Of a stretch of 64,000 nt of DNA, positions 31,181-45,911 are shown one piece after another; within the stretch, counting starts at the first letter, position 1; every line of letters starts with the position of its first letter. The notes under the pieces were generated by a model. The model worked only from the letters and a program-made list of their open reading frames with translations. It was not told the origin of the DNA and searched no databases. The translations under genes and the position numbers were made by a program. Source of the DNA: Escherichia coli (lineage in GTDB: Bacteria; Pseudomonadota; Gammaproteobacteria; Enterobacterales; Enterobacteriaceae); NCBI GenBank assembly GCA_902499925.1, contig GCA_902499925.1_4130.1; one strand, written 5' to 3'.

Positions 31181-31187
31181 TTTTTTG

Positions 31188-31388: not shown

Positions 31389-31410
31389 AATGTTTTACTC
31401 CAAACTATTG

Positions 31411-31472
31411 GCGGGAGAACTATTCCCCCGCTCTATGTAAAACATTATACATTACTGGTTAGTACTGTCAAA
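31411..31472 (-). promoter_or_regulatory. Promoter (TTGACA-N16-TATAAT) plus leader palindrome GGCGGGAGAACTATTCCCCCGC
   Basis: Read on minus strand immediately upstream of gene start 31388. Confidence 0.55.
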
Positions 31473-31478
31473 TAGTTT

Positions 31479-31736
31479 TTATGAAATATCTTCGATGTAG
31501 TCGGCCCATTTCATTTTTTCAGTACTGTCAATGGCGACCGGATTATTTGGATCAAACCATTCACCATCACCGCAATACATACCCACGGCTACGGTTTTAT
31601 AGCCATCCTGGGCCGCACTCCACGACATTGCACGATAGATATGGCCTTTAACTGGTTGCAGTACTGGTAACGTTTTATGGTCTTCTACGTAGGCCATAGC
31701 TTGAGGATTTACCCGATATTGTGTGAACTGATCCAT
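31479..31736 (-). CDS. Hypothetical protein
   Basis: 85-aa ORF. Confidence 0.65.
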   Translation of the reverse strand: MDQFTQYRVNPQAMAYVEDHKTLPVLQPVKGHIYRAMSWSAAQDGYKTVAVGMYCGDGEWFDPNNPVAIDSTEKMKWADYIEDIS

Positions 31737-31812
31737 TATGTTTCCCCTTGTAGTTAGTAAAGTTATTACATCAGTACTATCAAGCTATGTCAATAGTACT
31801 GAAATAAAACTT

Positions 31813-32037
31813 TTAGATTAGATTATTGAGGCCGTCAATGGTAGACTCACTTTCTTCTTTCTCCCATTGTCGGTAGTACTTCCATGCTTCATGATAGGTG
31901 GCGATTAGTTCATCTTTTTGATCCTGGTTACATGCCAGTACTGAATCACGGTGAGCGGTGTTATAGATAGAATCGAATGATTTCTTCTCTTCTGCCAGGT
32001 TAGCTACTTCCCGCATCAGTTCATCAAAGTTAGCCAT
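31813..32037 (-). CDS. Hypothetical protein
   Basis: 74-aa ORF; leader palindrome GGGGGAGGATATCTCCCCC upstream. Confidence 0.65.
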   Translation of the reverse strand: MANFDELMREVANLAEEKKSFDSIYNTAHRDSVLACNQDQKDELIATYHEAWKYYRQWEKEESESTIDGLNNLI

Positions 32038-32104
32038 TTTATTACTCCTTTTAGTGGGGGAGGATATCTCCCCCTATGCAAAACATTATACGCTTTATTC
32101 AGTA

Positions 32105-32368
32105 CTATGCAAGTACTTTTTTCATATAAAGATTATATTCTACACCGCCGTAACCTTCTACGATGATATGTTTTGCGTTATCACGTTTGCATATAGTAAA
32201 GGCATCGTTGACGTGTTTTGCATTTTCCAGGGCAACATCGCCGATAGCGGCACATACTGAACTAATAACGATATTCCGCAAAGTACTGGTATCATTAGCG
32301 GTCATAGTAGTTTGCAGTACTACGTTGTCGTATACGTGTGCATTGATAGTGATTTCGATAGTGTTCAT
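32105..32368 (-). CDS. Hypothetical protein
   Basis: Start set at MNTIEIT preceded by AGGAG; track extension MFYIERGKWF... is the translated promoter/hairpin. Confidence 0.7.
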   Translation of the reverse strand: MNTIEITINAHVYDNVVLQTTMTANDTSTLRNIVISSVCAAIGDVALENAKHVNDAFTICKRDNAKHIIVEGYGGVEYNLYMKKVLA

Positions 32369-32455
32369 GGTGTATCTCCTGGACTTGAGGGGAAACCATT
32401 TCCCCCTCTCGATATAAAACATTATACGTTAATCTAACTACAATGCAAGTACTTT

Positions 32456-32647
32456 TTAAATTTTATTTCCGATATAGTCCGGTCTATTCTTTTCGGTCAT
32501 ACGCTTTGCTAATGATTGCATATGGCTTATTGCGTTTAATGTGTCTTCCTCCAGGGATGAATCAACATAATCAGGATCATTCTTCACCTTGCAATGATTA
32601 TGATATCGTAGTACTGCCAGTACTTTTTTAACTTCTTCAACTGTCAT
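32456..32647 (-). CDS. Hypothetical protein
   Basis: 63-aa ORF; ATGA overlap with upstream gene. Confidence 0.6.
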   Translation of the reverse strand: MTVEEVKKVLAVLRYHNHCKVKNDPDYVDSSLEEDTLNAISHMQSLAKRMTEKNRPDYIGNKI

Positions 32648-32916
32648 AATAAGTATTCCACTTCGTTAGCTTTCAGGTTAGTATCAATCATCAGTGGATT
32701 TTTGTAGTTCACAAAACGAGTAGTTTTCTCGATAGCGAATCCCATATAATCCAGCTTACTAACAGTACATTCATTCTTAAAAACTTCTTTCGCTGCATCG
32801 ATGGCTGATTGCATGGATAACCGCCCATCTAAGTTAATATTTCCAAATGATCCACCAGCAGAAGTAGGATTACCGTTCATATCTTTAATGATCATAGTAG
32901 CGGAGTAGCTGGACAT
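32644..32916 (-). CDS. Hypothetical protein
   Basis: 90-aa ORF. Confidence 0.65.
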   Translation of the reverse strand: MSSYSATMIIKDMNGNPTSAGGSFGNINLDGRLSMQSAIDAAKEVFKNECTVSKLDYMGFAIEKTTRFVNYKNPLMIDTNLKANEVEYLL

Positions 32917-32937
32917 AATTTTGTTTCCTTTTAGTAT

Positions 32938-32997
32938 CGGGGAGAACTATTCTCCCCTTGATGTAAACTATTATACAGTACTAATATACTTTGTCAA
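32938..32997 (-). promoter_or_regulatory. Promoter (TTGACA-N16-TATAAT) plus leader palindrome GGGGAGAA-cta-TTCTCCCC
   Basis: Hexamers and perfect 8-bp inverted repeat read directly upstream of gene start 32916. Confidence 0.6.
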
Positions 32998-33000
32998 TAC

Positions 33001-33222
33001 TTAATTACGTTTAAAATGATATGTGCCTTTATCATCCTGTACGCCCCATACTGATTTACCATCAACACCAGTGAAACCGGATTGTAATTCAATATGGAAA
33101 CCATTATTATCAACTACAAAAACTTTTTTATTTTCATCCCGATAACATTGATATTCTGAATCAACATTAAAGGCCGCATCATTCAGAAGATTGGAAGCGT
33201 AAATGCAAGTCATTGTAGTCAT
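33001..33222 (-). CDS. Hypothetical protein
   Basis: Start set at MTTMTCIY after AAGGAA. Confidence 0.65.
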   Translation of the reverse strand: MTTMTCIYASNLLNDAAFNVDSEYQCYRDENKKVFVVDNNGFHIELQSGFTGVDGKSVWGVQDDKGTYHFKRN

Positions 33223-33349
33223 GATTTTATTCCTTAATATACCAGGGAGAACCATTTCCCCCTCTCGATATAAAACATTATACTTGATTCTAAGTACAAT
33301 GCAAGTACTTTTTTAAAAATAGTTTTCAGTACTGAATACTTATATAATA

Positions 33350-33438
33350 TATACACTTCCGCACCCTATGGGTCAGTGAGTTATCTCTCAATGAATATAT
33401 AATAGCAAAGGGACTGACCGGAGTCAATCCCTTTTTTA
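33350..33438. repeat. Copy B of ~90-bp intergenic repeat
   Basis: GCACCCTATGGGTCAGTGAG...TATAATAGCAAAGGGACTGACCGGAGTCAATCCCTTTTTT. Confidence 0.6.
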
Positions 33439-33445
33439 ATCTTTT

Positions 33446-34030
33446 TTATCGTGTTACCTTACTTGCTTCTACATCACGCTTTTTATAGTACTGATTCCAG
33501 ATATTGCGGGTTAAACCGTAATCAAGTACTTTAATAAGTCCATTACGATCCTGGCCGATATTCTGTTTTCTGATATCTCTTATCGTTAGTGTTGATAATG
33601 TATCATCAACGTGTTGTAGTGCATCAGCAAAGCGGTGCTGGCGTTCGATTGCATTACGTTTAATATTGTACTTTAATTCGTTGCACGCGTTAACGTGCTT
33701 CACACTGCCTTTACTTGCAGTACTCAACCGATCCATAACGATAAACATATTATCAGGATCGCATAAATGCATATGCACCTTTGCAAAGTACTGTTTCAAC
33801 TGAGGGCGGTCATAGTCTAAAAAATTCCATACCTTACATTCAGTTTCATTTTGTTCTACACCCGCATCACAATTCGCGACCTTAATCACTAACCGATCAT
33901 TTAAAGCGAAAACTATACGGGAAGAACCAGCACCGATGATCTCCAGGCCAGCTAACCGACAAGCTGAAAGGATCTCTTTGTTGGTTTCCATTTCTGACAG
34001 TGTACGGATGAATTTAGTATAATTACGCAT
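33446..34030 (-). CDS. Putative Ser/Thr protein kinase-like protein
   Basis: Gly-rich loop 'GAGSSRIVF', 'VIKVAN', catalytic-loop-like 'RDIRKQNIG' and DFG-like 'LDYGL'; start at MRNYTKF after GGAG. Confidence 0.6.
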   Translation of the reverse strand: MRNYTKFIRTLSEMETNKEILSACRLAGLEIIGAGSSRIVFALNDRLVIKVANCDAGVEQNETECKVWNFLDYDRPQLKQYFAKVHMHLCDPDNMFIVMDRLSTASKGSVKHVNACNELKYNIKRNAIERQHRFADALQHVDDTLSTLTIRDIRKQNIGQDRNGLIKVLDYGLTRNIWNQYYKKRDVEASKVTR

Positions 34031-34061
34031 TGTTTTATCTCCTTGAGTTAATGAAACTATA

Positions 34062-34304
34062 TTACAGTACTTTACTATCAATGGCAACTACTTTTTTAAC
34101 ATTAACGGCGTGGATCACTTCCTTCGTGTTTTTAGTACTGAATACTTTCGCCGCACCATTCACGACCGTGATACGATAGCGACCATTAACATCAACCATA
34201 TTAATAAAGTCCGGCGTGCTGAATGGTGTTGTTTTACATTTCAGTACTGTTAACAGTTCCACCAGCGATGTAGTTTCTTTGATACGTTTTTCTAAAGTAA
34301 TCAT
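34062..34304 (-). CDS. Hypothetical protein
   Basis: Start at MITLEKRIKE; track ORF begins at a TTG inside the upstream leader. Confidence 0.6.
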   Translation of the reverse strand: MITLEKRIKETTSLVELLTVLKCKTTPFSTPDFINMVDVNGRYRITVVNGAAKVFSTKNTKEVIHAVNVKKVVAIDSKVL

Positions 34305-34361
34305 TTTGTTTCCCCCGTGTTGGTATGTACATATAGTACTAAAACATTTGAGTACTGTCAA

Positions 34362-34580
34362 TTAGATAATATTATATTTCTTAAAATAAAATGCGTCCTG
34401 TGTTGGTTGATACTCGATACCGTTACCGTTATTGACTTCAACTAATAAACCTTTGTCAATAAGTTTTTTAATAGTACGATACCCTTGTTGAAAATTGGTA
34501 AAATGTGAATCATTACGAAAGGTATAACCGTGCTTAACTGCTTCATCAATAGTTTTCTTTTCGATTTTAGATAATTTCAT
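34362..34580 (-). CDS. Hypothetical protein
   Basis: Start at MKLSKIEKK; upstream leader duplicated from the previous gene. Confidence 0.6.
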   Translation of the reverse strand: MKLSKIEKKTIDEAVKHGYTFRNDSHFTNFQQGYRTIKKLIDKGLLVEVNNGNGIEYQPTQDAFYFKKYNII

Positions 34581-34633
34581 TTTGTTTCTCCCGTGTTGGT
34601 ATATGTACATAGTACTAAAACAATTGAGTACTG

Positions 34634-34888
34634 TCAACGTGATATTAGTTTTATTTTCTTATTATATTGTTGGTGTTCATATAGGTTTATCTTTCCTGTG
34701 TTCTCTATTACTATTCTGTTGTTAGTGTCTACATCGATTACACGCAGTTTTCCGTTGCTTAACTTCCTTGGTAATAGGTTACCATTAATAAACTCATTAG
34801 CAAGCTGTACGGCCTTTGTGATGATTCTCTGAGGTGCTTTATAGTGTACCCGCAAGATATTATCTTTATATAGTTGAACCTTAATCAT
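34634..34888 (-). CDS. Hypothetical protein
   Basis: 84-aa ORF directly after a terminator hairpin. Confidence 0.65.
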   Translation of the reverse strand: MIKVQLYKDNILRVHYKAPQRIITKAVQLANEFINGNLLPRKLSNGKLRVIDVDTNNRIVIENTGKINLYEHQQYNKKIKLISR

Positions 34889-34902
34889 TTTAGTTTATCC
34901 TA

Positions 34903-34928
34903 TAAAAAAGGCGGGAACTGATCCCGCC
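34903..34928 (-). terminator. Rho-independent terminator
   Basis: GGCGGGATCAGTTCCCGCC followed by TTTTTT on minus strand. Confidence 0.6.
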
Positions 34929-34950
34929 GTGTTGTTAGTACTGCAAGTTA

Positions 34951-35346
34951 TTAGATAACCTGGCGGCGTTTACTGTATACTGTTACACGATTACCCTTAC
35001 GGTCGTGTCGGATCTCTTTCTGGTTGCGAATCAGTTCACTTGGACGCTTAAGGTTTGCCAGGTGATCCGCGTGAGTCCAAGCGGTATGGTTTACCTGTAC
35101 TTTGATATCAGAACCAGCGATAAACTCATCTTGTGCGTTAAGTACTGCCGCCAGATCTTCCGCTCGTTTTAGTTCTGCTGCTGTTAGTACTGGCTCAGGT
35201 GAATTCACAATATCAGAGATCTCTTTGAACTGTACGGCCCAACGTTGGCCTTTCGGTGCATCTTTGCCCATGTCTTTAAATGCTGCTCCTTCCTCGCGTG
35301 CAACAATACGGGCAGCTTCACGGGTAGCGTAGAATTTAGTAATCAT
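34951..35346 (-). CDS. Hypothetical protein (paralog of 47602..47865)
   Basis: Shares 'YFATREAARI...FKDMG' and 'DRKGNRVTVY' with 47602..47865; start at MITKFYATRE after AGGA. Confidence 0.65.
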   Translation of the reverse strand: MITKFYATREAARIVAREEGAAFKDMGKDAPKGQRWAVQFKEISDIVNSPEPVLTAAELKRAEDLAAVLNAQDEFIAGSDIKVQVNHTAWTHADHLANLKRPSELIRNQKEIRHDRKGNRVTVYSKRRQVI

Positions 35347-35441
35347 GGTATACATCCTATTAGTTAAGTTAGTACTACAAGTTAGAGTCTATTATAAAGT
35401 ACTATCTGGGCAATGTCAAATAGTACTTTAAATGGATTCTA

Positions 35442-35765
35442 TTACATGTCTTTCTTACGTTTTACATCGTAGTAGCGAACTGTTATTTCTTTGTTAATCT
35501 CTTTTTCGATGTGGTGAATAACTTTTTCTTTCGGGTTGAAACCTATAACGGTTTCTTTAATGATCTCCAAACCAGTGTATTCGCCTTGTGTGCCGTAACC
35601 GTATGTAAAGGTTTCATGTCCCAGGTCTTCCCAGCGGTCGCCAATTAACGCAGACACGTAGCAAGAGTGGTAAGTATTGCCGTGTGAATCAGTCCACCGA
35701 TTAACTTTAATGTCAAAGGAGGTTACAATTTTCAATTCTACTTTCTGGGCAAGGATCATAGCCAT
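35442..35765 (-). CDS. Hypothetical protein (paralog of 42290..42613)
   Basis: Shares 'RWTDSHGNTYHSC.VS' and 'FTYGYG' with 42290..42613. Confidence 0.7.
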   Translation of the reverse strand: MAMILAQKVELKIVTSFDIKVNRWTDSHGNTYHSCYVSALIGDRWEDLGHETFTYGYGTQGEYTGLEIIKETVIGFNPKEKVIHHIEKEINKEITVRYYDVKRKKDM

Positions 35766-35852
35766 TTTTATTTCTCTCTTTTAGTTAGGAGGGGAACCAT
35801 TCCCCTCACTTGATGTAAACTATTATACAGTACTAAGATACTTTGTCAATAC

Positions 35853-36035
35853 TTATTTTTTGGAAAGTTTACGCATTAATTCTACGCTTTCTTGTGAACG
35901 TTTTGCTACCTGGCAAGCTGCATGGACAGTAAACATTTTTGTATAGTCTGACGCTTTGCCACCGAACCGAGCGGCACGTTCACGGGCACTTGGAACTAAT
36001 ACTATTTCTTTCTTGCAGATAGTGCACTTAGCCAT
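35853..36035 (-). CDS. Small Cys-rich (zinc-ribbon-like) protein
   Basis: MAKCTICKK...HAACQ; start set 45 nt inside track ORF. Confidence 0.55.
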   Translation of the reverse strand: MAKCTICKKEIVLVPSARERAARFGGKASDYTKMFTVHAACQVAKRSQESVELMRKLSKK

Positions 36036-36123
36036 TTTTATTTCTCTCTCTTTGTTAGGAGGGGAACCGTTTCCCCTCACTCGATGTAAACTATTATACA
36101 GTACTAAGATACTTTGTCAATAC

Positions 36124-36399
36124 TTAATTATTGTAAATGTCGTGAATAGTGATAAAGTTTTTACGACCGTAAACCTGCAAATCAATATCAATGTAGTGCT
36201 TATCTAGTACATCCTCGACGCTTAACGCGGTGTCGTGGATATCTTCGTAGAATTGAGGATCTACAATCTTGCTTAAGTCATCCGGCGTTAACTTATCGTT
36301 AAGCCATTGAACCGCCTGGATATCTGCTTCACGTTTCCAGTCTTCCAGGTTAGTAGTCAGTACTTGTTCGATTTCGTTAGCTGTCAGTAGAATCCGCAT
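36124..36399 (-). CDS. Hypothetical protein
   Basis: 91-aa ORF downstream of tandem promoters and structured leader. Confidence 0.65.
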   Translation of the reverse strand: MRILLTANEIEQVLTTNLEDWKREADIQAVQWLNDKLTPDDLSKIVDPQFYEDIHDTALSVEDVLDKHYIDIDLQVYGRKNFITIHDIYNN

Positions 36400-36423
36400 T
36401 TTTATGTTTCCTTATCAGTGGTT

Positions 36424-36600
36424 GATGTAAGTATTATACTCTTTTACTTTCTATTGTCAAACTATTTTATCAGGGGAGGTTTTCTTATGTCTTACTCCTG
36501 GACTACTTAACGGGGTTACTTGTTTCGTTCCCCGTCCTGATGTAAAACATTATACTTGATTCTAAGTACAATGCAAGTACTTTTTTAAAAATAGTTTTCA
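36424..36600 (-). promoter_or_regulatory. Tandem promoters flanking a ~70-nt conserved structured leader element
   Basis: Two TTGACA/TTGCAT-N16-17-TATAAT promoters; between them CAGGACGGGGAACGAAAC...CCTCCCCTG, repeated at ~46925-46998. Confidence 0.5.
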
Positions 36601-36614
36601 GTACTAGCCACCAG

Positions 36615-36706
36615 CATATAATAGATACATTTATGCACCCTGTGGGCTGATTTGTTTCTATGCGTATATAATAGCAAAGGGACTGACCGGAGTCAATCCC
36701 TTTTTC
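36615..36706. repeat. Copy C of ~90-bp intergenic repeat
   Basis: TATAATAGATACATTTATGCACCCTGTGGGCT...AAAGGGACTGACCGGAGTCAATCCCTTTTT. Confidence 0.6.
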
Positions 36707-36714
36707 AATTATTT

Positions 36715-36864
36715 TTAAACTTCTTTCGGGTTGCGATAGGTGATAGCGTTCGGGTACATTTGTTTAATGTTATTCCATGCCTGGTTAACATTGTAACCAC
36801 TTGAGCGAATCAGTTGGTTACTACCGACACCTTGAAACACTACTTCGAATAAGAATTCTTTCAT
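36715..36864 (-). CDS. Small hypothetical protein (~49 aa), not in ORF track
   Basis: ATG overlaps stop of upstream gene (ATGA); translation MKEFLFEVVFQGVGSNQLIRSSGYNVNQAWNN... Confidence 0.45.
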   Translation of the reverse strand: MKEFLFEVVFQGVGSNQLIRSSGYNVNQAWNNIKQMYPNAITYRNPKEV

Positions 36865-37034
36865 GCTTTCACCTCGCGATCTGCTTTACCTTTACGCCAG
36901 GACATTACTAATTGTTCGCGTTGCCATAAGTCGAGTGATACAAAAAGTTTTGCGGTATCACTTTTAGGATACTCGCCATTAGTACCTAACCGATAAAACA
37001 GATCTTTCAGTACTGATAATTCTACTTGGATCAT
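36861..37034 (-). CDS. Hypothetical small protein
   Basis: Start at MIQVELSVLKD; track extension is the translated leader hairpin. Confidence 0.55.
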   Translation of the reverse strand: MIQVELSVLKDLFYRLGTNGEYPKSDTAKLFVSLDLWQREQLVMSWRKGKADREVKA

Positions 37035-37120
37035 TATACTTTCCTCTTTGTTGGGAGGGGAACTATTCCCCTCTCGATATAAAACATTATACACTTTATT
37101 CAGTACTGTGCAAGTACTTT

Positions 37121-37333
37121 TTAATCTTTCAGCCAATGATCCTGAATGAATTTTTCGCCGGAACCTTGCTGCATAGATTGTAACAGACGTTCACGATGAG
37201 CGGCGGCGAATTGCTCAGTACTATGCGTTACACCTGGTTGATATCTGGATTCACCATTGGGGGCGATGTATTGTACATCCCACGGTTTTTCGTTAGTATC
37301 AGACCATTTACGAACGATTAGTTGACCTTGCAT
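37121..37333 (-). CDS. Hypothetical protein
   Basis: 70-aa ORF with promoter and GGGGAGAATCATTTCTCCCC leader. Confidence 0.65.
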   Translation of the reverse strand: MQGQLIVRKWSDTNEKPWDVQYIAPNGESRYQPGVTHSTEQFAAAHRERLLQSMQQGSGEKFIQDHWLKD

Positions 37334-37416
37334 TTTTCTTTCCTCTTAGTGGGGAGAATCATTTCTCCCCTTCATGTAAACTATTATACAGTACTAGATT
37401 ATCTTGTCAATAGTTT

Positions 37417-37740
37417 TTATTCACCTTGTTTGAATTTAGTTTTCTCCATTGATTCCATGATTGCAACCAATACACCGTGGATCTCGCTTAACGCGGAATC
37501 ACTAAAAGCATTAATGAATAGTCGATCATTCTCGCGAATATTTTTAATGTACTTTTCAGCAGTAGTTGCGAATTCATTCAACGGTAGATCAAATGCTTTA
37601 TCCCATGATGGATGGCGTAATTGTAACAGTACTGGATTATCACGATCACCAGGGGAAAACGTACCAGTGATGAAACATACGCCCGGAATACTTTCGAACT
37701 GGCAACGGACTTCCTTTGTGATAGTAGTATGAATGTACAT
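37417..37740 (-). CDS. Hypothetical protein
   Basis: 107-aa ORF; GAGGA SD; likely co-transcribed with 37768..37956. Confidence 0.65.
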   Translation of the reverse strand: MYIHTTITKEVRCQFESIPGVCFITGTFSPGDRDNPVLLQLRHPSWDKAFDLPLNEFATTAEKYIKNIRENDRLFINAFSDSALSEIHGVLVAIMESMEKTKFKQGE

Positions 37741-37767
37741 TTATTGTTATCCTCTATTAAATTAATA

Positions 37768-37956
37768 TTACAGTTTATGAATCAATTCTTTATCTAAGCG
37801 ATAGCGTACATTATTAATGGTAACAGCATTATTTTTAATGCTACGCTGTACAGGTCCACCAGCAATAACAAATGTTGCTTTATTACCCCGAACAATGATA
37901 GCACTTCCAGGATTACCGAAATCATCTTGTACTAAAATACTTGATAAGTTTTCCAT
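37768..37956 (-). CDS. Hypothetical protein
   Basis: 62-aa ORF; promoter TTGCAT...TATAGT and leader hairpin upstream. Confidence 0.6.
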   Translation of the reverse strand: MENLSSILVQDDFGNPGSAIIVRGNKATFVIAGGPVQRSIKNNAVTINNVRYRLDKELIHKL

Positions 37957-38034
37957 TTTTATTTCCTCTTAGTAGGGGAAGATGTTTCCCCTTGATGTAA
38001 GTACTATAACAGTACTGAAAACTAAATGCAAGTA

Positions 38035-38391
38035 CTATGATAAAATCATGATAGGATATTCACTATCGATCAGTACCTCGAATCCGAAACCTTCGTACCA
38101 TTCTTTAAGATTAAAGGCGTTATCTTCTCCCGTATCGCATTCTAAGATGATACAATCTGAATCATCAGCGGCATCGATAAAGGCATTCATTAATTCGTTA
38201 CCTTCACCATTGCCCCGACTATCAGGATCAACATAAAGAGAATCAATAAACGCTACACGGTCATAATCAAGATCCGGTGCAATGATTCCACGTTTAACAA
38301 ACCAGTACTGCAATTGTGCTACTTTGCCCTGTACTTGATAGCCAGTGATCTCGCCATTGTCAGTAGTACGCGTGATATGTTGTATTCCCAT
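38035..38391 (-). CDS. Putative GNAT-family N-acetyltransferase-like protein
   Basis: 'IDSLYVDPDSRGNGEGNELMNAF' resembles acetyl-CoA-binding motif A; TTGACA-N16-TATAAT upstream. Confidence 0.55.
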   Translation of the reverse strand: MGIQHITRTTDNGEITGYQVQGKVAQLQYWFVKRGIIAPDLDYDRVAFIDSLYVDPDSRGNGEGNELMNAFIDAADDSDCIILECDTGEDNAFNLKEWYEGFGFEVLIDSEYPIMILS

Positions 38392-38455
38392 GATTACTAT
38401 CCTCAGTTAAGATATAAAACATTATACACTATCTTTCAGTACTGTCAATTACTTT

Positions 38456-38713
38456 TTATCTCATAGATCTATGCCAACAATTACGCGGGGGACGTTTAAA
38501 AGTACTATCATGATCCTCCTGGCAAGTAATGCAGTACATGCACCCTATAACGGCCTGGCGTCGATTCTCAGGGATTTTATCGCCGCAGTCGAGGCAATGT
38601 ACTAGTGATTCTCTTTGTGCGTTAATTTGCTTTCTAGCGTGGTTGACGGCGGCCTGAATCACTGCGTTGATCTCGTCTTGTTCGGCCCCGTCTTTCGCGT
38701 ATCCTACTGCCAT
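38456..38713 (-). CDS. Putative DksA/TraR-type C4 zinc-finger protein
   Basis: 'HCLDCGDKIPENRRQAVIGCMYCITCQ' gives CxxC-N17-CxxC spacing. Confidence 0.55.
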   Translation of the reverse strand: MAVGYAKDGAEQDEINAVIQAAVNHARKQINAQRESLVHCLDCGDKIPENRRQAVIGCMYCITCQEDHDSTFKRPPRNCWHRSMR

Positions 38714-39042
38714 TATTTTAACCTCATTATAAAAATACTATAGTACTGTAATGCTACAATAATACTACTAGTGTTTATCTTATTCAAACCATATGATACT
38801 ACATATCCATCAGCATTACCACGGATAGTAACGCCTTTGTACTGTCTATATAAATTCAACTGCGTATATTGCCTTTGATCAAGAATTGATCAGAATTATA
38901 CGCCTTATGCTAAATTAATCCAGTACTTTTTTGATCATTTATTGATCGATATTATATAGTTACATTTGTGCACCCTATGGGTTAGTGACGTTCTCGTCTT
39001 GATGTAAGTATTATGCCAGTACTGGAGGATATTGTCAATAGA

Positions 39043-39240
39043 TTATTTTAATTTTTTTCTGTCATTGATTAATGCTTTCAGTACTATACTAATAACTTGC
39101 AATGATTCATCAATGACAATGAAATTATTCTCTTTCATTAGATGATAGTTACCATTGATTGTATATTCTAACGAGTACTGTTTACGTTTAATTTTTGATA
39201 ATGTTTCTATTTGTTTTTGTACTGATTTCATGCTAATCAT
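39043..39240 (-). CDS. Hypothetical small protein
   Basis: ORF in AT-rich spacer; start taken at first ATG (track begins at TTG). Confidence 0.35.
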   Translation of the reverse strand: MISMKSVQKQIETLSKIKRKQYSLEYTINGNYHLMKENNFIVIDESLQVISIVLKALINDRKKLK

Positions 39241-39313
39241 TGTCAAACGTCCTGTAACGCATTCTAACGAGATAAACGGTTTAGTACTGGCATTGTATAG
39301 GGTAAATGATTAA

Positions 39314-39339
39314 AGCCCACCAGCGTTAACCAGTGGGCT
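39314..39339 (-). terminator. Rho-independent terminator
   Basis: AGCCCAC-N12-GTGGGCT hairpin followed by T-rich tract on minus strand. Confidence 0.55.
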
Positions 39340-39345
39340 ATAATC

Positions 39346-39489
39346 TTACATCTTGCGGATAATCTTAACAGTATCTTTCACCGATTTACCGTTTTGCTGA
39401 CATTGCTCGATCATCGCGTATTGTTCTGCGGTCAGATCCTCGCCAGTTTTTGCCAGTACTGCGTCGATGAATGAATCCAGTGCGATCAT
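39346..39489 (-). CDS. Small hypothetical protein (~47 aa), not in ORF track
   Basis: Own TTGACA-N16-TATAAT promoter; translation MIALDSFIDAVLAKTGEDLTAEQYAMIEQCQQNGK...; terminator downstream. Confidence 0.45.
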   Translation of the reverse strand: MIALDSFIDAVLAKTGEDLTAEQYAMIEQCQQNGKSVKDTVKIIRKM

Positions 39490-39588
39490 TTTGTTTCTCT
39501 CTTAGGTTAAGTTAACTACTGTTTATAAAACTTATTATACAGTACTATCAAACGTTGTCAATATCTTTAATAGTACTGGTAATATATT

Positions 39589-39768
39589 TTAGCGGTAATC
39601 GTCGTATGCTTTATTCACCTGGCGAATGTAACTTTCAAAGGCTTCGTCTACCGTTTCATACTCCCGAACATAATCACCATAGGAAACTACATACATACCT
39701 TTTTGATCTTCAAACGTCATGATGATAGAATCCAGGCCGATGATTTCAGTTTTTGCGATGATAGCCAT
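39589..39768 (-). CDS. Hypothetical small protein
   Basis: Start at MAIIAKTEII after AAGGA; upstream TTGACA-N17-CATAAT. Confidence 0.55.
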   Translation of the reverse strand: MAIIAKTEIIGLDSIIMTFEDQKGMYVVSYGDYVREYETVDEAFESYIRQVNKAYDDYR

Positions 39769-39850
39769 TTTTAATTCCTTAGTAGTGTAGTTGATAAAAG
39801 TTATTATGCCAGTACTATCAATCAGTGTCAATAGTACTGTGATAATATTT

Positions 39851-40063
39851 TTAGTTAATGATAGTCAGTGTAAAATTGTAATCCCCTGCCTGGTATAGTA
39901 CTTTGTCGCCGAACGTTCCAACACGTTTCATATTGCAATAGATACCCATAACACTTTTTACATCTTTGATATTCCGAACGCCAGTAATATCCTTGTTTAA
40001 ATGATCGTGATCAGAAAATAAAACTTGTTTTGCATTTTTCAGTACAGTGCAGATATTAGCCAT
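39851..40063 (-). CDS. Hypothetical protein
   Basis: 70-aa ORF; promoter and GGGGAGAATCATTTCTCCCC leader. Confidence 0.6.
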   Translation of the reverse strand: MANICTVLKNAKQVLFSDHDHLNKDITGVRNIKDVKSVMGIYCNMKRVGTFGDKVLYQAGDYNFTLTIIN

Positions 40064-40157
40064 TTTGTTTTCTCTCTGTTAGTGGGGAGAATCATTTCTC
40101 CCCTTGATGTAAACTATTATACAGTACTATAATCTATTGTCAAACTATTTTTTTATA

Positions 40158-40499
40158 TTATTCGAAATCTTCTGGACCGGACTGATAATCATCTTCACCG
40201 TATGCACTTTCTAACCGCTCACCAGTGTGATCATCAGTTAGTGAGTCATCCTCATAGTTCACGTCTACGCCAGTGATGTAAAACTGGCTATCGTCTGGAT
40301 CATTGAAATTAATTTTTTGGATGTTTACAATAACTGTATTGATACCCAGGACACCGCCATCAGCCGTTACAAAGTACTGATAGTTTTCGCAACCGCCTGA
40401 ATTGAAACCGTAATTAATTTCGGCCCGACCATCATTTAAACGCAGTGCCTGGGCGATGATTTCATTTTCAAAGTTAGATTGAGCAATTGAGATAGTCAT
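40158..40499 (-). CDS. Hypothetical acidic protein
   Basis: 113-aa ORF with promoter TTGCAA-N16-TATAAT and GGGGAAACGGTTTCCCC leader. Confidence 0.65.
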   Translation of the reverse strand: MTISIAQSNFENEIIAQALRLNDGRAEINYGFNSGGCENYQYFVTADGGVLGINTVIVNIQKINFNDPDDSQFYITGVDVNYEDDSLTDDHTGERLESAYGEDDYQSGPEDFE

Positions 40500-40623
40500 G
40501 ATTTGTTTCCTTATTACCAGGGGAAACCGTTTCCCCTTTCGATGTAAAACATTATACGCTTATTGAGATAGTTTGCAAGTACTTTCTACAAATACTTTTA
40601 AAATAGTTTTCAGTACTCAAACA

Positions 40624-40727
40624 TTATATAATAGATACACTTATGCACCCTGTGGGCTAGTGAGCTATCTCTCAATGAATATATAATAGCAAAATGGCTG
40701 ACCGGAGTCAACCACTTTTTTCATTTA
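40624..40727. repeat. Copy D of ~90-bp intergenic repeat
   Basis: TATAATAGATACACTTATGCACCCTGTGGGCTAGTGAGC...AAAATGGCTGACCGGAGTCAACCACTTTTTT. Confidence 0.6.
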
Positions 40728-40864
40728 TTTTTAGCTTTTAGAATCGCCGCCTTTCGCGTCATGCCTTGCTTGATGTATTCCTGTACTTTCGCTTTACGTG
40801 CATTCGCTTTATTTGCTTTCGTAAACGCCGAACAACTTTTATAATTTAAGCCTGTTGGATTCAT
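40721..40864 (-). CDS. Small basic hypothetical protein (~47 aa), not in ORF track
   Basis: Start directly after stop of upstream ORF (TAAATG); Lys-rich; followed by terminator hairpin. Confidence 0.4.
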   Translation of the reverse strand: MNPTGLNYKSCSAFTKANKANARKAKVQEYIKQGMTRKAAILKAKNK

Positions 40865-40954
40865 TTAAATCACCATAAAGAATAGATAGGTTACTAACAA
40901 TGCCGCGATCAATGCACCGACCAGGGCCGAACTATAGTAAGCTAATGATTTCAT
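40865..40954 (-). CDS. Small hydrophobic peptide (~29 aa), not in ORF track
   Basis: ATGA overlap with upstream gene; MKSLAYYSSALVGALIAALLVTYLFFMVI is a single predicted TM helix. Confidence 0.4.
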   Translation of the reverse strand: MKSLAYYSSALVGALIAALLVTYLFFMVI

Positions 40955-41103
40955 TTTTTAGCCTGAAAGTAATGTTTAATTTGAGCGGCGGTCAGTGCAC
41001 AATTACGCAGGAAGTTTTCTGTATAACTGCGGCGAGTACTGAAAGAGAATTGACCTTTGCCGTTACCGATAGTAACATCAAACCGAGCGTTGTATTGTTT
41101 CAT
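40951..41103 (-). CDS. Hypothetical small protein
   Basis: Start at MKQYNARF after GGAG; track extension is promoter/hairpin. Confidence 0.5.
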   Translation of the reverse strand: MKQYNARFDVTIGNGKGQFSFSTRRSYTENFLRNCALTAAQIKHYFQAKK

Positions 41104-41184
41104 TTTGTTTCTCCTGTTATTGGGGAGAATCATTTCTCCCCTTCATGTAAAACATTATACAGTACTAAAAACTAATTGCAAGTA

Positions 41185-41331
41185 CTATTTTTTAGATTTA
41201 CGCAAACTTTCTACCATCTCAGGAGTAAGGCCAGGCGGGTAGAAAACCACTTCATCAACGAAACGTAAAGGGAATACCCCATCTAAGGTTGAACGTGCTT
41301 TCTTGTTAGTACTCTTTTTTGATGCTTTCAT
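41185..41331 (-). CDS. Small basic hypothetical protein (~48 aa), not in ORF track
   Basis: Own promoter (TTGCAA-N16-TATAAT), GGGGAGAA leader and TAAGGAA SD; MKASKKSTNKKARSTLDGVFPLRF... Confidence 0.5.
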   Translation of the reverse strand: MKASKKSTNKKARSTLDGVFPLRFVDEVVFYPPGLTPEMVESLRKSKK

Positions 41332-41400
41332 TTCATATTCCTTAATTAGTGGGGAGAATCATTTCTCCCCTTCATGTAAAACATTATACGCGTTTAAAAA

Positions 41401-41610
41401 CTAATTGCAAGTACTATTTGAAAGTAAATGCTCATACGCTGCATTAACTACGTTTTCAATAACCGACTGTACAGAAAGATCCCCCACGGCCTGGCTATAG
41501 TAGAAATCGCTTACAGTGGTGTCATCGTATGCAAATACTTTACCAGGTACTGCATCAATCACATACATATTAACCTTTAAGATGTCGATCTTATCCTGTA
41601 CAGTAAGCAT
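41401..41610 (-). CDS. Hypothetical protein
   Basis: 69-aa ORF. Confidence 0.6.
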   Translation of the reverse strand: MLTVQDKIDILKVNMYVIDAVPGKVFAYDDTTVSDFYYSQAVGDLSVQSVIENVVNAAYEHLLSNSTCN

Positions 41611-41615
41611 ATTAA

Positions 41616-41888
41616 TTAACCTTTTAAGTACTGGCTTAAGTAGTCTTGTTGATCTTCGGTGATTGCAGCCATCTTCCCTAGTACTGGATTGATGATATAA
41701 TCCCCTGTAACGTCCTGTAACGCATTCTCAGGCGGTTTAACGGCTGGGGTAGCCATAGCCATTGCCTGGACTTGTTCGACGCTGTAACGCTCATAAAGGC
41801 GGCATTCTTCCGGTGTTAACATAGCATCAGTACGCTTCATCGGTTTAATGATGCTTTCGATCTCATTCAGTACTTGATTAACGTTCAT
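41616..41888 (-). CDS. Hypothetical protein
   Basis: 90-aa ORF. Confidence 0.65.
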   Translation of the reverse strand: MNVNQVLNEIESIIKPMKRTDAMLTPEECRLYERYSVEQVQAMAMATPAVKPPENALQDVTGDYIINPVLGKMAAITEDQQDYLSQYLKG

Positions 41889-41939
41889 GGTATAATCCCC
41901 AATATAAGCGGCCTGAATCGACCGCTAACGATGTTTTGA

Positions 41940-42209
41940 TTAATAGGTGTATGGTTGACGCTCAAACAATGATTGCACGTTGTACGCCCCGCTTATGGGC
42001 TTCGCTGGTAAATCAATTTTATATTGTTCACGCTTAAAGATAATAAAACGGCAATTGTTTTTAACATCAAAATTGATTGAACGTTCCAGGAGTTTTCCAT
42101 CGTGCACAAATACAAGATAACCGCTTGCTACTTGTTTTGTAGTACTGGTTGCAACCATAGACCGACGAACATGTGTACCTGCATCGATTAAAGTACTGAT
42201 ATTTTTCAT
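41940..42209 (-). CDS. Hypothetical protein
   Basis: 89-aa ORF. Confidence 0.65.
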   Translation of the reverse strand: MKNISTLIDAGTHVRRSMVATSTTKQVASGYLVFVHDGKLLERSINFDVKNNCRFIIFKREQYKIDLPAKPISGAYNVQSLFERQPYTY

Positions 42210-42289
42210 TATACGATCCTCTTAAGTTAATTTAATTTCTTTCCCCTATGCAGACACTATATCAAAGTATCTGCATAAAGTAAAGCTAA

Positions 42290-42613
42290 TTAAAGATCTT
42301 TTTTGCGTTTAACATTCTGTACAGTACAATGCAACGGGATATTAAGATCATTGCACAAACGAGTAAGGGAGGTTTCATCAGTATTAAGCCCGTCTACTGA
42401 TTCCTTTAAGAGAGATAACGCCGTTTGTTGATATGCATCTTCATAGCCATAAGTAAATGATTCAACCGCCAGATCATTCAAACCGTTATCCAGTTCAACG
42501 CTTACATGACAAGAATGATAAGTATTGCCATATGAATCAGTCCAACGTTTACCGTCAACATTGATTGCACGGATTGCAGCCAGGGAAACGGTGTTAATGA
42601 TAGTTTTAGCCAT
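42290..42613 (-). CDS. Hypothetical protein (paralog of 35442..35765)
   Basis: Shares 'RWTDSYGNTYHSCHVS' and 'FTYGYE'. Confidence 0.7.
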   Translation of the reverse strand: MAKTIINTVSLAAIRAINVDGKRWTDSYGNTYHSCHVSVELDNGLNDLAVESFTYGYEDAYQQTALSLLKESVDGLNTDETSLTRLCNDLNIPLHCTVQNVKRKKDL

Positions 42614-42702
42614 TTTTGTATTCCTTAAATTAATATGTTGTCTTGATAAAATCTATTATGCCAGTACTATCAAACTATGTCAATAGTACTGTGATAATAT
42701 TT

Positions 42703-42846
42703 TTACTTACTTTTTTCTTTCTTTATTACTTCCACCTGGTCGGCCCATTCTTTACCCCATACTTGTAAATTATAATGGTACTGGCAAAGAGCAACGCCCC
42801 GCTTTAAACCCGTAATAGATTTCTGACCACATTGACAAGTTTTCAT
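42703..42846 (-). CDS. Small Cys-containing hypothetical protein (~47 aa), not in ORF track
   Basis: Own promoter and GGGGAGAACCATTTCTCCCC leader; MKTCQCGQKSITGLKRGVALCQYHYNLQVW... Confidence 0.45.
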   Translation of the reverse strand: MKTCQCGQKSITGLKRGVALCQYHYNLQVWGKEWADQVEVIKKEKSK

Positions 42847-42932
42847 TTTAGTTTCCTTGTAGTGGGGAGAACCATTTCTCCCCTTGATGTAATGTATTAT
42901 ACTTTATTCGATTTACTTTGCAAGTACTTTTT

Positions 42933-43160
42933 TTAATTTAATTCATCAAGGCAAAGGATACGCTCAACGCCCAAATCAGTTAAACTAATCGACGGCACTT
43001 GATAGGTTTCAATGTATGCTACACTTGCCCACTGACCGAACTCATTAACGGCCCAGGTATTCATTGCATTTTGCAATTCCGCACCTTCCTTGTTGGTAAT
43101 GACTGCAACTACTTGTTCGTTGCCAGTAGTACCAGATACGCGAGTAATGATAATAGCCAT
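42933..43160 (-). CDS. Hypothetical protein
   Basis: Start at MAIIITRVSG; track extension is promoter/hairpin. Confidence 0.65.
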   Translation of the reverse strand: MAIIITRVSGTTGNEQVVAVITNKEGAELQNAMNTWAVNEFGQWASVAYIETYQVPSISLTDLGVERILCLDELN

Positions 43161-43397
43161 TGTTTTGATTCCTTTGATTTGGAAGGAGAACCGTTTCCCC
43201 CTCTCGATGTAAAACATTATACGCTAATCTCTTAATCGTGCAAGTACTTTTTATTACTTTTTGCAAAATACTTTAAACGCTCTCAATCGCATTACAACGA
43301 CCTTAACGCCACCAGCTAGGGCAATTGCATCAGATAATCAGTTTAATGCGTTAGAATCGTTTCTAGGCGGTGCTGGTGGCCTGGTAAACGATAAACA

Positions 43398-43425
43398 CAA
43401 AAAAGCCCACCATTTAAGGTGGGCT
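43398..43425 (-). terminator. Rho-independent terminator
   Basis: AGCCCACC-ttaaat-GGTGGGCT followed by TTTTTT on minus strand, just 3' of gene 43447..43929. Confidence 0.65.
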
Positions 43426-43446
43426 AGTGATTCAGTACTTTAATTG

Positions 43447-43929
43447 TTATGCTTCAACTTTGCGATGAGCTTCGATCCATTCCTCGCGAGTCATACCGCT
43501 GGAGTTAATCGCATCCAGTACTACAGCAATGCAGTTACCACGCACCGGAATCAGATATTCTTCCCCGTTGTCCAGTACTACCGCTACGCGTTCCTGAATC
43601 CATTTTTTTGCTTTTACTTCTGGCTTATCTTCCCCGTACTTAACCGCCAGGGCTTTTTGTGCCATCTCTGTAACTACTTCCAGATCCAGCCCAACTACTG
43701 CCGCCTGAATACTTTCAATTGTTGCTTGCAGTTCTGCTTCACGGGCCGCTTTCGCCGCTTCAATTTCTGCCGCTTTATTTGCTTGTAGTTCTTTCGCAGT
43801 ACTGTACGCGATGTTAAAATTATTGCGTACCGCTTTCATGGTATCGTTGTCCAGTTCAGCCAGGATCTCAGCCGCGACGTTAGTTTCATTTGCTACCAGT
43901 GCTTTGATGAATGATTTTACATTAGCCAT
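43447..43929 (-). CDS. Hypothetical protein with Ala/Glu-rich predicted coiled-coil region
   Basis: Start at MANVKSFIK; central 'AKELQANKAAEIEAAKAAREAELQATIESIQAA'. Confidence 0.7.
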   Translation of the reverse strand: MANVKSFIKALVANETNVAAEILAELDNDTMKAVRNNFNIAYSTAKELQANKAAEIEAAKAAREAELQATIESIQAAVVGLDLEVVTEMAQKALAVKYGEDKPEVKAKKWIQERVAVVLDNGEEYLIPVRGNCIAVVLDAINSSGMTREEWIEAHRKVEA

Positions 43930-44134
43930 TTTATAAATCCTCAATTAAAGTTTAGTTTACGTTTATTAGTGTATCAAAGTTTTCTCGACGTGTCCAGTTT
44001 TTCGTTCGACTTACTGGCGGTCTACTTAGTGCTCCCCGTCTTGATGTAATACATTCTACGCCTTTTTGCGGTAATGTCAACTACTTTTTTTAAAACTATT
44101 TTCAAAGTATCTCAGTACTACGATACTATAAAAA

Positions 44135-44161
44135 CAAAAAAGCCCACTGTATAAGTGGGCT
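44135..44161 (-). terminator. Rho-independent terminator
   Basis: AGCCCAC-ttataca-GTGGGCT followed by T-run on minus strand, 3' of gene 44179..44478. Confidence 0.6.
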
Positions 44162-44178
44162 AGTGATTCAGTACTAGA

Positions 44179-44478
44179 TTATAAACAGTTAATTACTCCG
44201 GTGTGCGTTACTTTCTCAGTATCCATTACAGTGACCGAACCGCGTTTAGTACTTGCATCGTAATAAATTGTCGTGCTACCTTTTTCGTCTTCTTCATGGA
44301 ACGGGCCGCTTTTAAATGCTTCTGGCTGGATCTCTAAATCCTTTAAAACAATCTCGCCAGTACTTTCATTGGTCATCGCTACAGTGCACTGAATGAATTT
44401 TTCATTACTTACATCTAACGACGCATTAACAGCGAAAGAGGAAACAGATAAAGCCAGGGCGATGATTGCAATTTTCAT
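44179..44478 (-). CDS. Putative secreted/periplasmic protein
   Basis: N-terminus MKIAIIALALSVSSFAVNA-SLDV looks like a signal peptide. Confidence 0.7.
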   Translation of the reverse strand: MKIAIIALALSVSSFAVNASLDVSNEKFIQCTVAMTNESTGEIVLKDLEIQPEAFKSGPFHEEDEKGSTTIYYDASTKRGSVTVMDTEKVTHTGVINCL

Positions 44479-44562
44479 TTGATTATCCTTAGTTACCAGG
44501 GGGAACCGCTCCCCCTTGCGATGTAAAATATTATACAGTTCTAAAAACTATTATCAAGTACT

Positions 44563-44799
44563 TTATGATTTTTTATAAAACATTTCAGCAGTGATATTTT
44601 TACCCGTTGGCTGTACTTTATCCAGGATTTTTTGATGTCCAGGCCGACCAAATGAATATGATCCGTAAACCGTAAACCAGTAGTTACCCTCAGTGTTTAC
44701 ATGTACAGCACAATAAGGAACACCACGCGATTCATCACTAGTAAAGTGTGATACCGTTCCCGTTACATTCGCAGACGTTGATTTGATTTGTTCGAGCAT
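44563..44799 (-). CDS. Hypothetical protein
   Basis: 78-aa ORF with leader hairpin GGGGAACCACTCCCC. Confidence 0.6.
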   Translation of the reverse strand: MLEQIKSTSANVTGTVSHFTSDESRGVPYCAVHVNTEGNYWFTVYGSYSFGRPGHQKILDKVQPTGKNITAEMFYKKS

Positions 44800-44906
44800 T
44801 TTCTTATTCCTTAGTTACCAGGGGAACCACTCCCCTATGCAAAACATTATACGCGTTTAAAAACTAATTGCAAGTATTTTAATAAAAAGTATTTGAAAAA
44901 TAGTTG

Positions 44907-44935
44907 TTGACAAGTGCATCCAGTACTGGCATAAT
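44907..44935 (+). promoter_or_regulatory. Plus-strand sigma70-like promoter (TTGACA-N17-CATAAT) with no downstream ORF
   Basis: Hexamers read on plus strand; followed by CCCACCGGGTGC motif and a hairpin. Confidence 0.5.
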
Positions 44936-44941
44936 TACTAC

Positions 44942-45045
44942 ATAAAGACAAAACAGTCTCTAACCCACCGGGTGCCGAGATCCGTCTATTAAATGATTCA
45001 GTACTGAAAAAGTAACGGGGAGTTATTATCTCCCCGCGTTGTTAT
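44942..45045 (+). ncRNA. Candidate small RNA (promoter-to-terminator unit ~100 nt)
   Basis: Begins after promoter at 44907-44935; contains CCCACCGGGTGC; ends at CGGGGAG-ttattat-CTCCCCG hairpin followed by T-rich tract. Confidence 0.35.
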
Positions 45046-45263
45046 TTGGTAAGGTATAAACAGAAGTCACCTTTATTTGCTACGCCGCCAGTGTAACGCG
45101 ATGAATAGTTAGAAACGTCCTGGACTTCTGCTATTACCAGTGTATCATCATTCATTTCGTCGCAGAAGCAAACGGCTGGATCTTGTACGCCGATTTTGTC
45201 GGCATGTTCCCGCATAGATTTAACCAGTGCTTCCAGTTGGGAAAGAGTAGTGATATTAGCCAT
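45042..45263 (-). CDS. Hypothetical protein
   Basis: Start at MANITTLSQ; track extension is leader. Confidence 0.65.
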   Translation of the reverse strand: MANITTLSQLEALVKSMREHADKIGVQDPAVCFCDEMNDDTLVIAEVQDVSNYSSRYTGGVANKGDFCLYLTK

Positions 45264-45349
45264 TTTATTTTCCTCATTACCAGGGAGAACCATTTCTCCC
45301 TTTGATGTAAACCATTATACAGTACTGAAAACTAATTGCAAGTACTTTT

Positions 45350-45553: not shown

Positions 45554-45570
45554 TAGATAATCCTCAGTAC

Positions 45571-45855: not shown

Positions 45856-45911
45856 TAGATAATCCTCAGTAAAGGCGGGAACCATTCCCGCCATTGATTC
45901 AGTACTGAATG

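Follow-up and report, generated by a model that had tools for sequence, protein, structure and literature searches.

Neighbouring genes for a YbiI/TraR-type zinc finger and a mini-GNAT acetyltransferase in the putative early region of an Asteriusvirus jumbo coliphage appear to be independent cassettes

The window analysed here, a stretch of DNA of 64,000 nucleotides, carries two neighbouring minus-strand genes that are likely to be independent early genes of a jumbo coliphage, one for a TraR-like modulator of host RNA polymerase (RNAP) and the other for an accessory protein acetyltransferase. The first is a YbiI/TraR-type C4 zinc-finger gene of 85 amino acids (38456..38713, the homologue of 121Q gp294) and the second a minimal GNAT N-acetyltransferase gene of 118 amino acids (38035..38391, the homologue of 121Q gp295). 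Both open reading frames singled out in the preliminary description are real, with exact coordinates that include the stop codon; the strand, which it did not give, is minus in each case. By nucleotide identity the source of the window is an Asteriusvirus (121Q/PBECO4-type) jumbo coliphage, the DNA of this region being 91–97% identical to the Asteriusvirus jumbo coliphages WPEC3, fEgEco12, 121Q and PBECO4. In 121Q, gp295 is labelled 'GNAT family N-acetyltransferase' and gp294 'DksA-like zinc-finger protein', and 18 listed phage records contain an identical (100%) GNAT protein, 19 at 99% identity or more, many of them labelling it acetyltransferase. Since identical or near-identical genes carry the same labels in related phage genomes, both are already known at the level of annotation; they are ordinary accessory early genes in a phage genus that is known and well sampled. 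The value of the finding is modest and nothing in it should surprise a specialist; it adds little, because the databases already annotate both genes in this way. A literature search found no experiments on the GNAT, the zinc finger or any close homologue. Neither gene has a second copy in the window, which also yielded no tRNA gene and no match to Rfam.

The matches of both proteins to their families are far beyond chance, and profile searches assigned the folds that had been proposed for them rather than unrelated ones. For the zinc finger, Pfam zf-dskA_traR (PF01258) matches with E=3.7e-9 (36.9 bits against a gathering score of 24.9) and PHROG 54, 'DksA-like zinc-finger protein', with E=7.6e-19. 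The CxxC-N17-CxxC pattern read earlier as DksA/TraR-like corresponds to C40-x2-C43, 17 residues and C61-x2-C64, and the reading holds, with all four finger cysteines invariant in 47 homologues; an extra cysteine, C58 ('CMYC'), is not conserved among homologues. A pN/pS of 0.15–0.22 against relatives indicates purifying selection. Among NCBIfam models the YbiI-type PRK11019 ranks first (80.4 bits against a cut-off of 96), and the TraR models PRK13715 (31.1 bits against 108) and TIGR02419 (49.1 against 59.7) are likewise below their cut-offs. Because its scores fall below every NCBIfam equivalog cut-off, the protein is classed by profile score as a relative, not an equivalog, of the YbiI and TraR families. 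It is a single-helix protein of the short YbiI/TraR type and not DksA proper. Homologues are 60–72% identical in T4-like phages, and in bacteria they are the 88-amino-acid YbiI proteins. The family is present in 947 phage records by tblastn, many of them T4-like, and the YbiI branch of the DksA/TraR proteins is thereby set in a phage context.

Of the mechanisms considered for the zinc finger, the likeliest is that it acts as TraR does, through the secondary channel of host RNAP, and on comparative grounds we regard this as moderately probable. TraR has a three-part layout in which a C4 zinc globule stands between an N-terminal and a C-terminal helix (PMC6970531). The AF2 model of the phage protein, of moderate confidence (pLDDT 70), predicts a helix at residues 8–28, a zinc knuckle, a short C-terminal helix at residues 62–70 and then a disordered, Pro-containing basic tail of low model confidence. 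The only significant Foldseek matches to this model are E. coli YbiI (2kgo) and RNAP-bound TraR (6n57_M), and superposition on the latter gives a TM of 0.56 normalised to the target. Sequence comparison with the PDB points to the same two proteins, with E=3e-12 for YbiI 2kgo in a full-length alignment over residues 1–74 and E=7.5e-6 for RNAP-complexed F-plasmid TraR (5w1s/6n57). The TraR positions I44-P45-E46-x-R48-R49, G54 and Q62 align to I47-P48-E49-x-R51-R52, G57 and Q65 of the phage protein; P48, R51 and R52 are invariant and E49 is at least 90% conserved among the 47 homologues. In TraR, P45, E46, R48 and R49 contact the beta' rim helices and beta'Si3 (PMC9239242, PMC6970531). By analogy with F-plasmid TraR and lambda Orf73, the N-terminal helix would enter the secondary channel of host RNAP, and the zinc knuckle would sit on the beta' rim helices via the conserved I-P-E-x-R-R segment. 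Such binding would shift initiation kinetics without ppGpp and damp rRNA and ribosomal-protein promoters, and the damping of these host promoters may divert resources to the phage.

The phage protein departs from this template at the tip of the N-terminal helix, and a different function has to be weighed. The tip sequence Y5-A-K-D8-G-A10 keeps a near-invariant D-x-A and lacks the first Asp of the DxxDxA motif, which is replaced by Tyr, Phe or Trp throughout the subfamily ([F/W/Y]-A-K-D-G-A). D8 lies 32 residues from the first Cys, where both TraR and YbiI have 31, and the register of the tip motif is uncertain because phmmer and MAFFT offsets differ. An incomplete DxxDxA in the entire YbiI-type subfamily would suit proteins that are not secondary-channel regulators of RNAP and that bind nucleic acid, metal or another partner via the basic tail. 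The phage-specific tail, FKRxPRNCWHRSMR, is near-invariant among phage homologues, different in bacterial YbiI and without a counterpart in TraR. E. coli YbiI is itself uncharacterised, with a link to iron metabolism once suggested, and some intermediate-length C4 relatives without the DxxDxA motif have no DksA/TraR-like action (PMC9239242). Against this stand the conserved RNAP-contacting segment and the TraR-like predicted layout already described, together with the behaviour of relatives. All five TraR homologues tested bound RNAP and complemented a dksA deletion; P2 Orf82 and X. bovienii Gp34, which have imperfect tip motifs, still bound RNAP and inhibited rRNA promoters, with lower activity (PMC9239242). 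Overexpressed YbiI is also reported, as data not shown, to rescue the auxotrophy of a dksA deletion (PMC2613031). Taken together, a role for the zinc finger away from the secondary channel is rather doubtful.

Both closest families share much with the phage protein and differ from it in definable ways. YbiI is of similar length (88 amino acids against 85), is the best fold match and has in common the N-terminal M-A-x-G-[FWY]-A-x-D-x-A, the C4 spacing and I-P-x-x-R-R. The phage protein differs from it in its C-terminal tail and in a one-residue insertion before the finger. The genes also differ in setting: that of the zinc finger is carried by a phage and preceded by a putative early promoter of the sigma-70 type, and ybiI is a chromosomal gene that the literature describes as sigma-S-dependent. 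TraR and its homologues, such as lambda Orf73 and VP882 Orf61, have the same three-part layout and are encoded on mobile elements; the C-terminal helix of such regulators contacts the beta lobe-Si1. Relative to TraR, the N-terminus of the phage zinc finger is 2–3 residues longer, D-x-A alone is kept of DxxDxA and a basic tail of 15 residues is added.

The zinc-finger gene is preceded by a small open reading frame, orf48 (38713..38859, minus strand; 48 amino acids with a TTG start; 121Q gp293), the stop codon of which shares bases with the ATG of the zinc finger (TAATG). It matches PHROG 38664 (1.3e-31), its substitutions relative to PBECO4 are conservative with the frame kept, and its pN/pS is 0.22–0.39 on few differences. 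The two genes are probably co-transcribed and translationally coupled. The arrangement recalls phage VP882, whose TraR homologue is shown in a 2026 preprint to be in a complex with QisA, encoded directly upstream of it. T4-like phages likewise have a DUF7438 open reading frame that overlaps the zinc-finger start codon. A conserved QisA-like partner for the zinc finger was considered and discarded, as orf48 and the DUF7438 open reading frame are unrelated; an overlapping upstream open reading frame was absent at all four of the more distant phage zinc-finger loci. Tight phage gene packing explains the overlap equally well, and a QisA-type partner is a weak lead.

The second gene encodes a GNAT with an intact catalytic signature on a shortened fold. 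The acetyl-CoA motif that had been noticed in its translation, VDPDSRGNGEGNELMNAF, corresponds to residues 54–71, and within it R59-G60-N61-G62-E63-G64 fits GNAT motif A (Q/R-x-x-G-x-G/A), which forms the pyrophosphate-binding loop between beta4 and alpha3. Three Pfam GNAT families score above their cut-offs and so substantiate the motif: Acetyltransf_1 (PF00583; E=4.1e-9, 37.2 bits against 20.7), Acetyltransf_7 (PF13508; 33.5 bits against 27) and Acetyltransf_10 (PF13673; 26.3 against 23.6). Acetyltransf_7 is matched by 58 of 62 family members, and the PHROG matches, 1249 and 3810, are both 'acetyltransferase'. In the alignment of 62 sequences G64 and Y99 are invariant, R59 and G62 are at least 90% conserved and D86, E89, F93, W98 and F104 are near-invariant. 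Because they are conserved across this alignment, the acetyl-CoA loop and the motif-B tyrosine Y99, the usual general acid, are judged intact, a sequence pattern consistent with activity. The pN/pS relative to 121Q is 0.07, again indicating purifying selection.

The AF2 model of the GNAT is of high confidence (pLDDT 94) and, as with the zinc finger, structure prediction agrees with the fold first proposed. Its topology is beta-beta-alpha-beta-alpha-beta-alpha-beta-beta, with the GNAT core, beta4-alpha3-beta5-alpha4-beta6(-beta7), represented by elements at E45–54, H63–74, E80–84, H95–101, E105–108 and E114–117. Before beta4 there are only a beta-hairpin (residues 4–21) and a helix (25–33), so that the N-terminal arm (beta1-alpha1-alpha2-beta2-beta3) is incomplete; the Acetyltransf_1 match correspondingly covers positions 53–116 of the 116-position profile. 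As modelled, the protein is a trimmed 'mini-GNAT' without the usual alpha1-alpha2 region. The trimming does not exclude membership of the GNAT superfamily, because accepted mini-GNATs such as AcrVA5 share it. All significant Foldseek matches to the model in the PDB and BFVD are GNATs. PDB neighbours include the N-terminal acetyltransferases Naa60, Naa30, Naa50 and Ard1, and the neighbour closest in size is AcrVA5 (6iuf), an anti-CRISPR lysine acetyltransferase of 92 amino acids, with a TM of 0.74 normalised to the target, an rmsd of 2.8 Å and 16% sequence identity. In BFVD, mini-GNATs of 100–125 amino acids are common in phages and giant viruses.

The relatives of the GNAT place it within a family that also occurs inside much larger phage proteins. 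A word-indexed homologue search returned two clusters only, and it took an exhaustive HMMER search to uncover the family, with 290 GNAT representatives of which many are 117–140 amino acids long and aligned end to end. Some large proteins carry the same mini-GNAT domain at one end, beside PARP/ART and ParB, Amidoligase_2 or DUF5661 domains, and these fused domains match the phage GNAT with E of about 1e-12 and about 40% identity. A GNAT family in the polyvalent proteins of gammaproteobacterial phages has been predicted to modify proteins, and solo versions of it have been noted (Iyer et al. 2017, PMC5512222). The domain described there appears homologous, family membership being judged from domain architecture and not from the sequences of that paper. 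The difference lies in context, in that the phage gene here is a stand-alone gene of 118 amino acids that would be transcribed after entry, and not part of a large multidomain protein. The GNAT appears to be a solo copy of a mini-GNAT domain also present inside phage polyvalent proteins, and the connection is useful in that it links this domain to a compact, easily expressed protein of 118 amino acids.

Fold neighbours that act on proteins, combined with the polyvalent-protein context, favour acetylation of a host protein, and on this analysis the GNAT is most likely an accessory protein acetyltransferase acting on a host protein. It would transfer an acetyl group from acetyl-CoA to an amino group of that protein, which might belong to the transcription or translation machinery or be a defence factor. 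It is termed accessory because some members of the genus lack the gene. Two small GNATs encoded by phages are precedents, each acetylating a bacterial protein to the advantage of the phage: AcrVA5, which shares the trimmed fold, and Rac of phiKMV-like phages, a GNAT acting on RNAP (PMC7552054). The comparison with Rac concerns role.

A narrower form of protein acetylation would make the mini-GNAT an anti-defence enzyme that inactivates a host immune protein as AcrVA5 does. AcrVA5 is the structural neighbour closest in size, and the polyvalent proteins that contain the mini-GNAT domain have been credited with countering host defences at entry. The closest relative of the GNAT outside Asteriusvirus (48% identity) lies among Antirestrict, CcdA, SocA_Panacea and HNH genes, and presence or absence within a genus is typical of counter-defence genes. 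These points are set against the 16% identity to AcrVA5, a fold similarity that is generic to GNATs, and the lack of a defence-linked partner or of a PADLOC match for the GNAT (for the zinc finger PADLOC gave a non-significant match only). A dedicated anti-defence function is, on balance, unlikely.

Acetylation of a small molecule such as an antibiotic, polyamine or amino-acid analogue, or of aminoacyl-tRNA in the manner of AtaT/TacT, would take the substrate away from proteins altogether. Substrates of GNATs with comparable cores include antibiotics, polyamines and aminoacyl-tRNA, and several such enzymes turn up here: phosphinothricin, puromycin, aminoglycoside and streptothricin acetyltransferases as weak matches by sequence, and a GNAT toxin (7byy) and small-molecule GNATs among the fold matches. 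However, the antibiotic-acetyltransferase matches are far below family cut-offs and limited to the shared acetyl-CoA-binding core, and the missing part of the fold, alpha1-alpha2, is what usually gives small-molecule acceptor pockets their shape. Moreover, mini-GNAT fusions are with protein- or DNA-directed conflict domains, and no antitoxin-like partner gene was seen for the GNAT. A non-protein substrate is thus quite unlikely, and protein acetylation is retained as the preferred reading.

A more specific combination may also be considered, in which the mini-GNAT acetylates a specific host defence or transcription protein and the YbiI-type finger acts on RNAP in a manner unlike TraR, via its tail or orf48. 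We hold this combination to be distinctly unlikely. On this view coliphages would have a new enzyme directed against the host, the GNAT, comparable to AcrVA5 or Rac, and the zinc finger with the orf48 product would perhaps be a two-protein complex like QisA-TraR of VP882.

The surroundings of the two genes point to expression at the onset of infection. From approximately 30 to 50 kb the minus strand of the window is an array of small genes, most of them behind a near-consensus sigma-70 promoter. The window has 15 perfect TTGACA-N16-17-TATAAT sites where 0.22 would be expected, and almost all of them lie on the gene (minus) strand. Repeat analysis resolves a module of approximately 90 nt, comprising promoter and stem-loop and repeated roughly 20–30 times, which runs in order through an A/T tract, the -35, a spacer often ending in AGTACTG, TATAAT, an ACATC start region, a G-rich stem-loop and a Shine-Dalgarno sequence. 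Three minus-strand promoter elements frame the genes discussed here. Upstream of the orf48 and zinc-finger pair is a promoter-like site at 39010..39038 (TTGACA-17 nt-CATAAT with TG), followed by the conserved start region ACTTACATCAAG. The GNAT promoter at 38421..38448 matches the sigma-70 consensus at 12 of 12 positions (TTGACA-16 nt-TATAAT) and serves the GNAT alone. The next promoter, with the 5' arm of a G-rich stem-loop, lies at 37985..38031 (TTGCAT-17 nt-TATAGT; repeat family D2) and drives a downstream gene of 62 amino acids.

PeSL (promoter-early stem-loop) cassettes have reportedly been described in T4-type phages by Arbiol and colleagues in 2010. The likeness lies in modules of early promoter and stem-loop that flank small open reading frames, with indel breakpoints within the promoters; the resemblance is organisational only. 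In the relative vB_Ec-M-J, annotation assigns this stretch to a direct terminal repeat of 21.5 kb. In the related phage CBB, RpoD-like promoters cluster in a region of short open reading frames that has been read as early host-takeover genes (PMC5259590). The sigma-70 promoters, the small-gene array, the terminal-repeat annotation and the CBB precedent together give good sequence support for early expression of both genes by host RNAP, which would probably transcribe the genes of the array soon after DNA entry. The preliminary description had suggested that both proteins would fit host takeover, and the timing it implied fits this setting of strong sigma-70-type promoters, small genes and, in a relative, a terminal repeat.

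The adjacency of the two genes, which that description had put in its title, has no detectable functional meaning. The perfect consensus promoter of the GNAT stands between them, and in PBECO4 and Salmonella phage SD-1_S14 the zinc finger is kept while the GNAT cassette is precisely missing. T4-like phages carry a 65% identical zinc finger in the tk/vs/rI early region with no GNAT within 4 kb, and conversely Klebsiella phage 05F01 and the P0199 loci have the GNAT and no DksA/TraR gene nearby. The zinc finger is present in 947 phage records and the GNAT in 25, the genomic context of the GNAT being taken from annotated phage records and one exact-protein look-up. A functional module, in which the GNAT acetylates host RNAP or the zinc finger so that both act together on transcription, could draw on the shared strand and early array of the two neighbours and on the precedent that Rac sets for a phage GNAT acting on RNAP. 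With a promoter of its own for the GNAT, relatives that lack the GNAT and no co-occurrence of the two genes elsewhere, functional coupling was rejected and a joint module is highly improbable. The adjacency appears incidental, and the two genes appear to be independent cassettes rather than a functional pair.

The junction left by the missing GNAT is informative in its own right. In the GNAT-less genomes the -35 and spacer of the GNAT promoter are joined directly to the -10 of the next promoter (37985..38031). Because the breakpoints fall inside two promoters, the GNAT is a cassette with promoters as its bounds, and recombination between promoter repeats accounts for its gain or loss. At nucleotide resolution, the locus records how early genes come and go by recombination between repeated promoters. 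The neighbouring DUF7247 gene (37417–37740) shows the same kind of polymorphism, being present in the window and absent from 121Q and vB_Ec-M-J.

The GNAT gene, which encodes a 118-aa mini-acetyltransferase, is present or absent within the genus Asteriusvirus, as seen when 37985-38448 of the window is compared with PBECO4 and Salmonella phage SD-1_S14. Both breakpoints of this polymorphism lie within promoter repeats, belonging to two promoters, which implies that the cassette was gained or lost through recombination between promoters. The DUF7247 gene (37417-37740) behaves in the same way and is missing from 121Q and vB_Ec-M-J.

The repeats belong to a module of ~90 nt that tiles the minus strand of the early array between ~30000 and 50000 in about 20-30 copies, with example sites at 35822-35849, 36093-36120, 37383-37410, 38421-38448, 39534-39561 and 40116-40143. 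Each module runs from an A/T tract through a -35 element (TTGACA or AGTACTTGCAA), a 16-17-nt spacer that frequently ends in AGTACTG, and TATAAT to an ACATC start region. Behind this come a G-rich stem-loop (GGGGAGAAATGATTCTCCCC-like) and a Shine-Dalgarno site, followed by a small ORF with an ATG start. Perfect consensus promoters number 15 in the window against 0.22 expected. In its layout of promoter and stem-loop the module is akin to the PeSL cassettes of T4-type phages.

The zinc-finger protein encoded next to the GNAT gene is distinguished by its C-terminal tail, FKRxPRNCWHRSMR (residues 72-85; 38456-38500). This tail is nearly invariant across homologues from Asteriusvirus and T4-like phages, although their overall identity is only 60-72%. 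The C-terminus of bacterial YbiI differs from it, and the F-plasmid relative TraR is without a counterpart. In the structure model the tail is of low confidence. Immediately upstream, a 48-aa ORF (38713-38859, minus strand) begins at a TTG, and its stop codon shares bases with the start codon (ATG) of the zinc-finger gene. Pfam gives no match for this ORF. Its substitutions relative to PBECO4 are conservative and suggest a real micro-protein. In T4-like phages the equivalent position is instead occupied by an unrelated DUF7438 ORF.

Further repeats occur in the early array. A 33-nt element with the palindromic core GCACCC-TRTG-GGT(C) is found in five copies (33347-33379, 36621-36653, 38956-38988, 40631-40663 and 47172-47204), located in 5' leaders or intergenic regions, and no Rfam family was matched across the window. 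Two strong, near-identical terminator-like hairpins on the minus strand (36676-36703 and 40691-40718) consist of AAAGGGATTGACTCCGGTCAGTCCCTTT followed by a T-rich tail, and both overlap a promoter-like TTGACT-17-TATTAT site. A degenerate run of about 150 nt with an 8-nt period (CGTCTAGC/CATCCAGC-like) was also observed at 49479-49630.

The G+C content of the array (30000-50000) is 0.36-0.42, higher than the 0.28-0.34 of its flanks, and the sign of the GC skew switches near 50-52 kb. At 55391-63870, on the plus strand and so opposite to the early array, seven ORFs of 358-440 aa stand in tandem and form a paralogous family with pairwise identities of 25-36% and BLASTP E-values as low as 2e-42.
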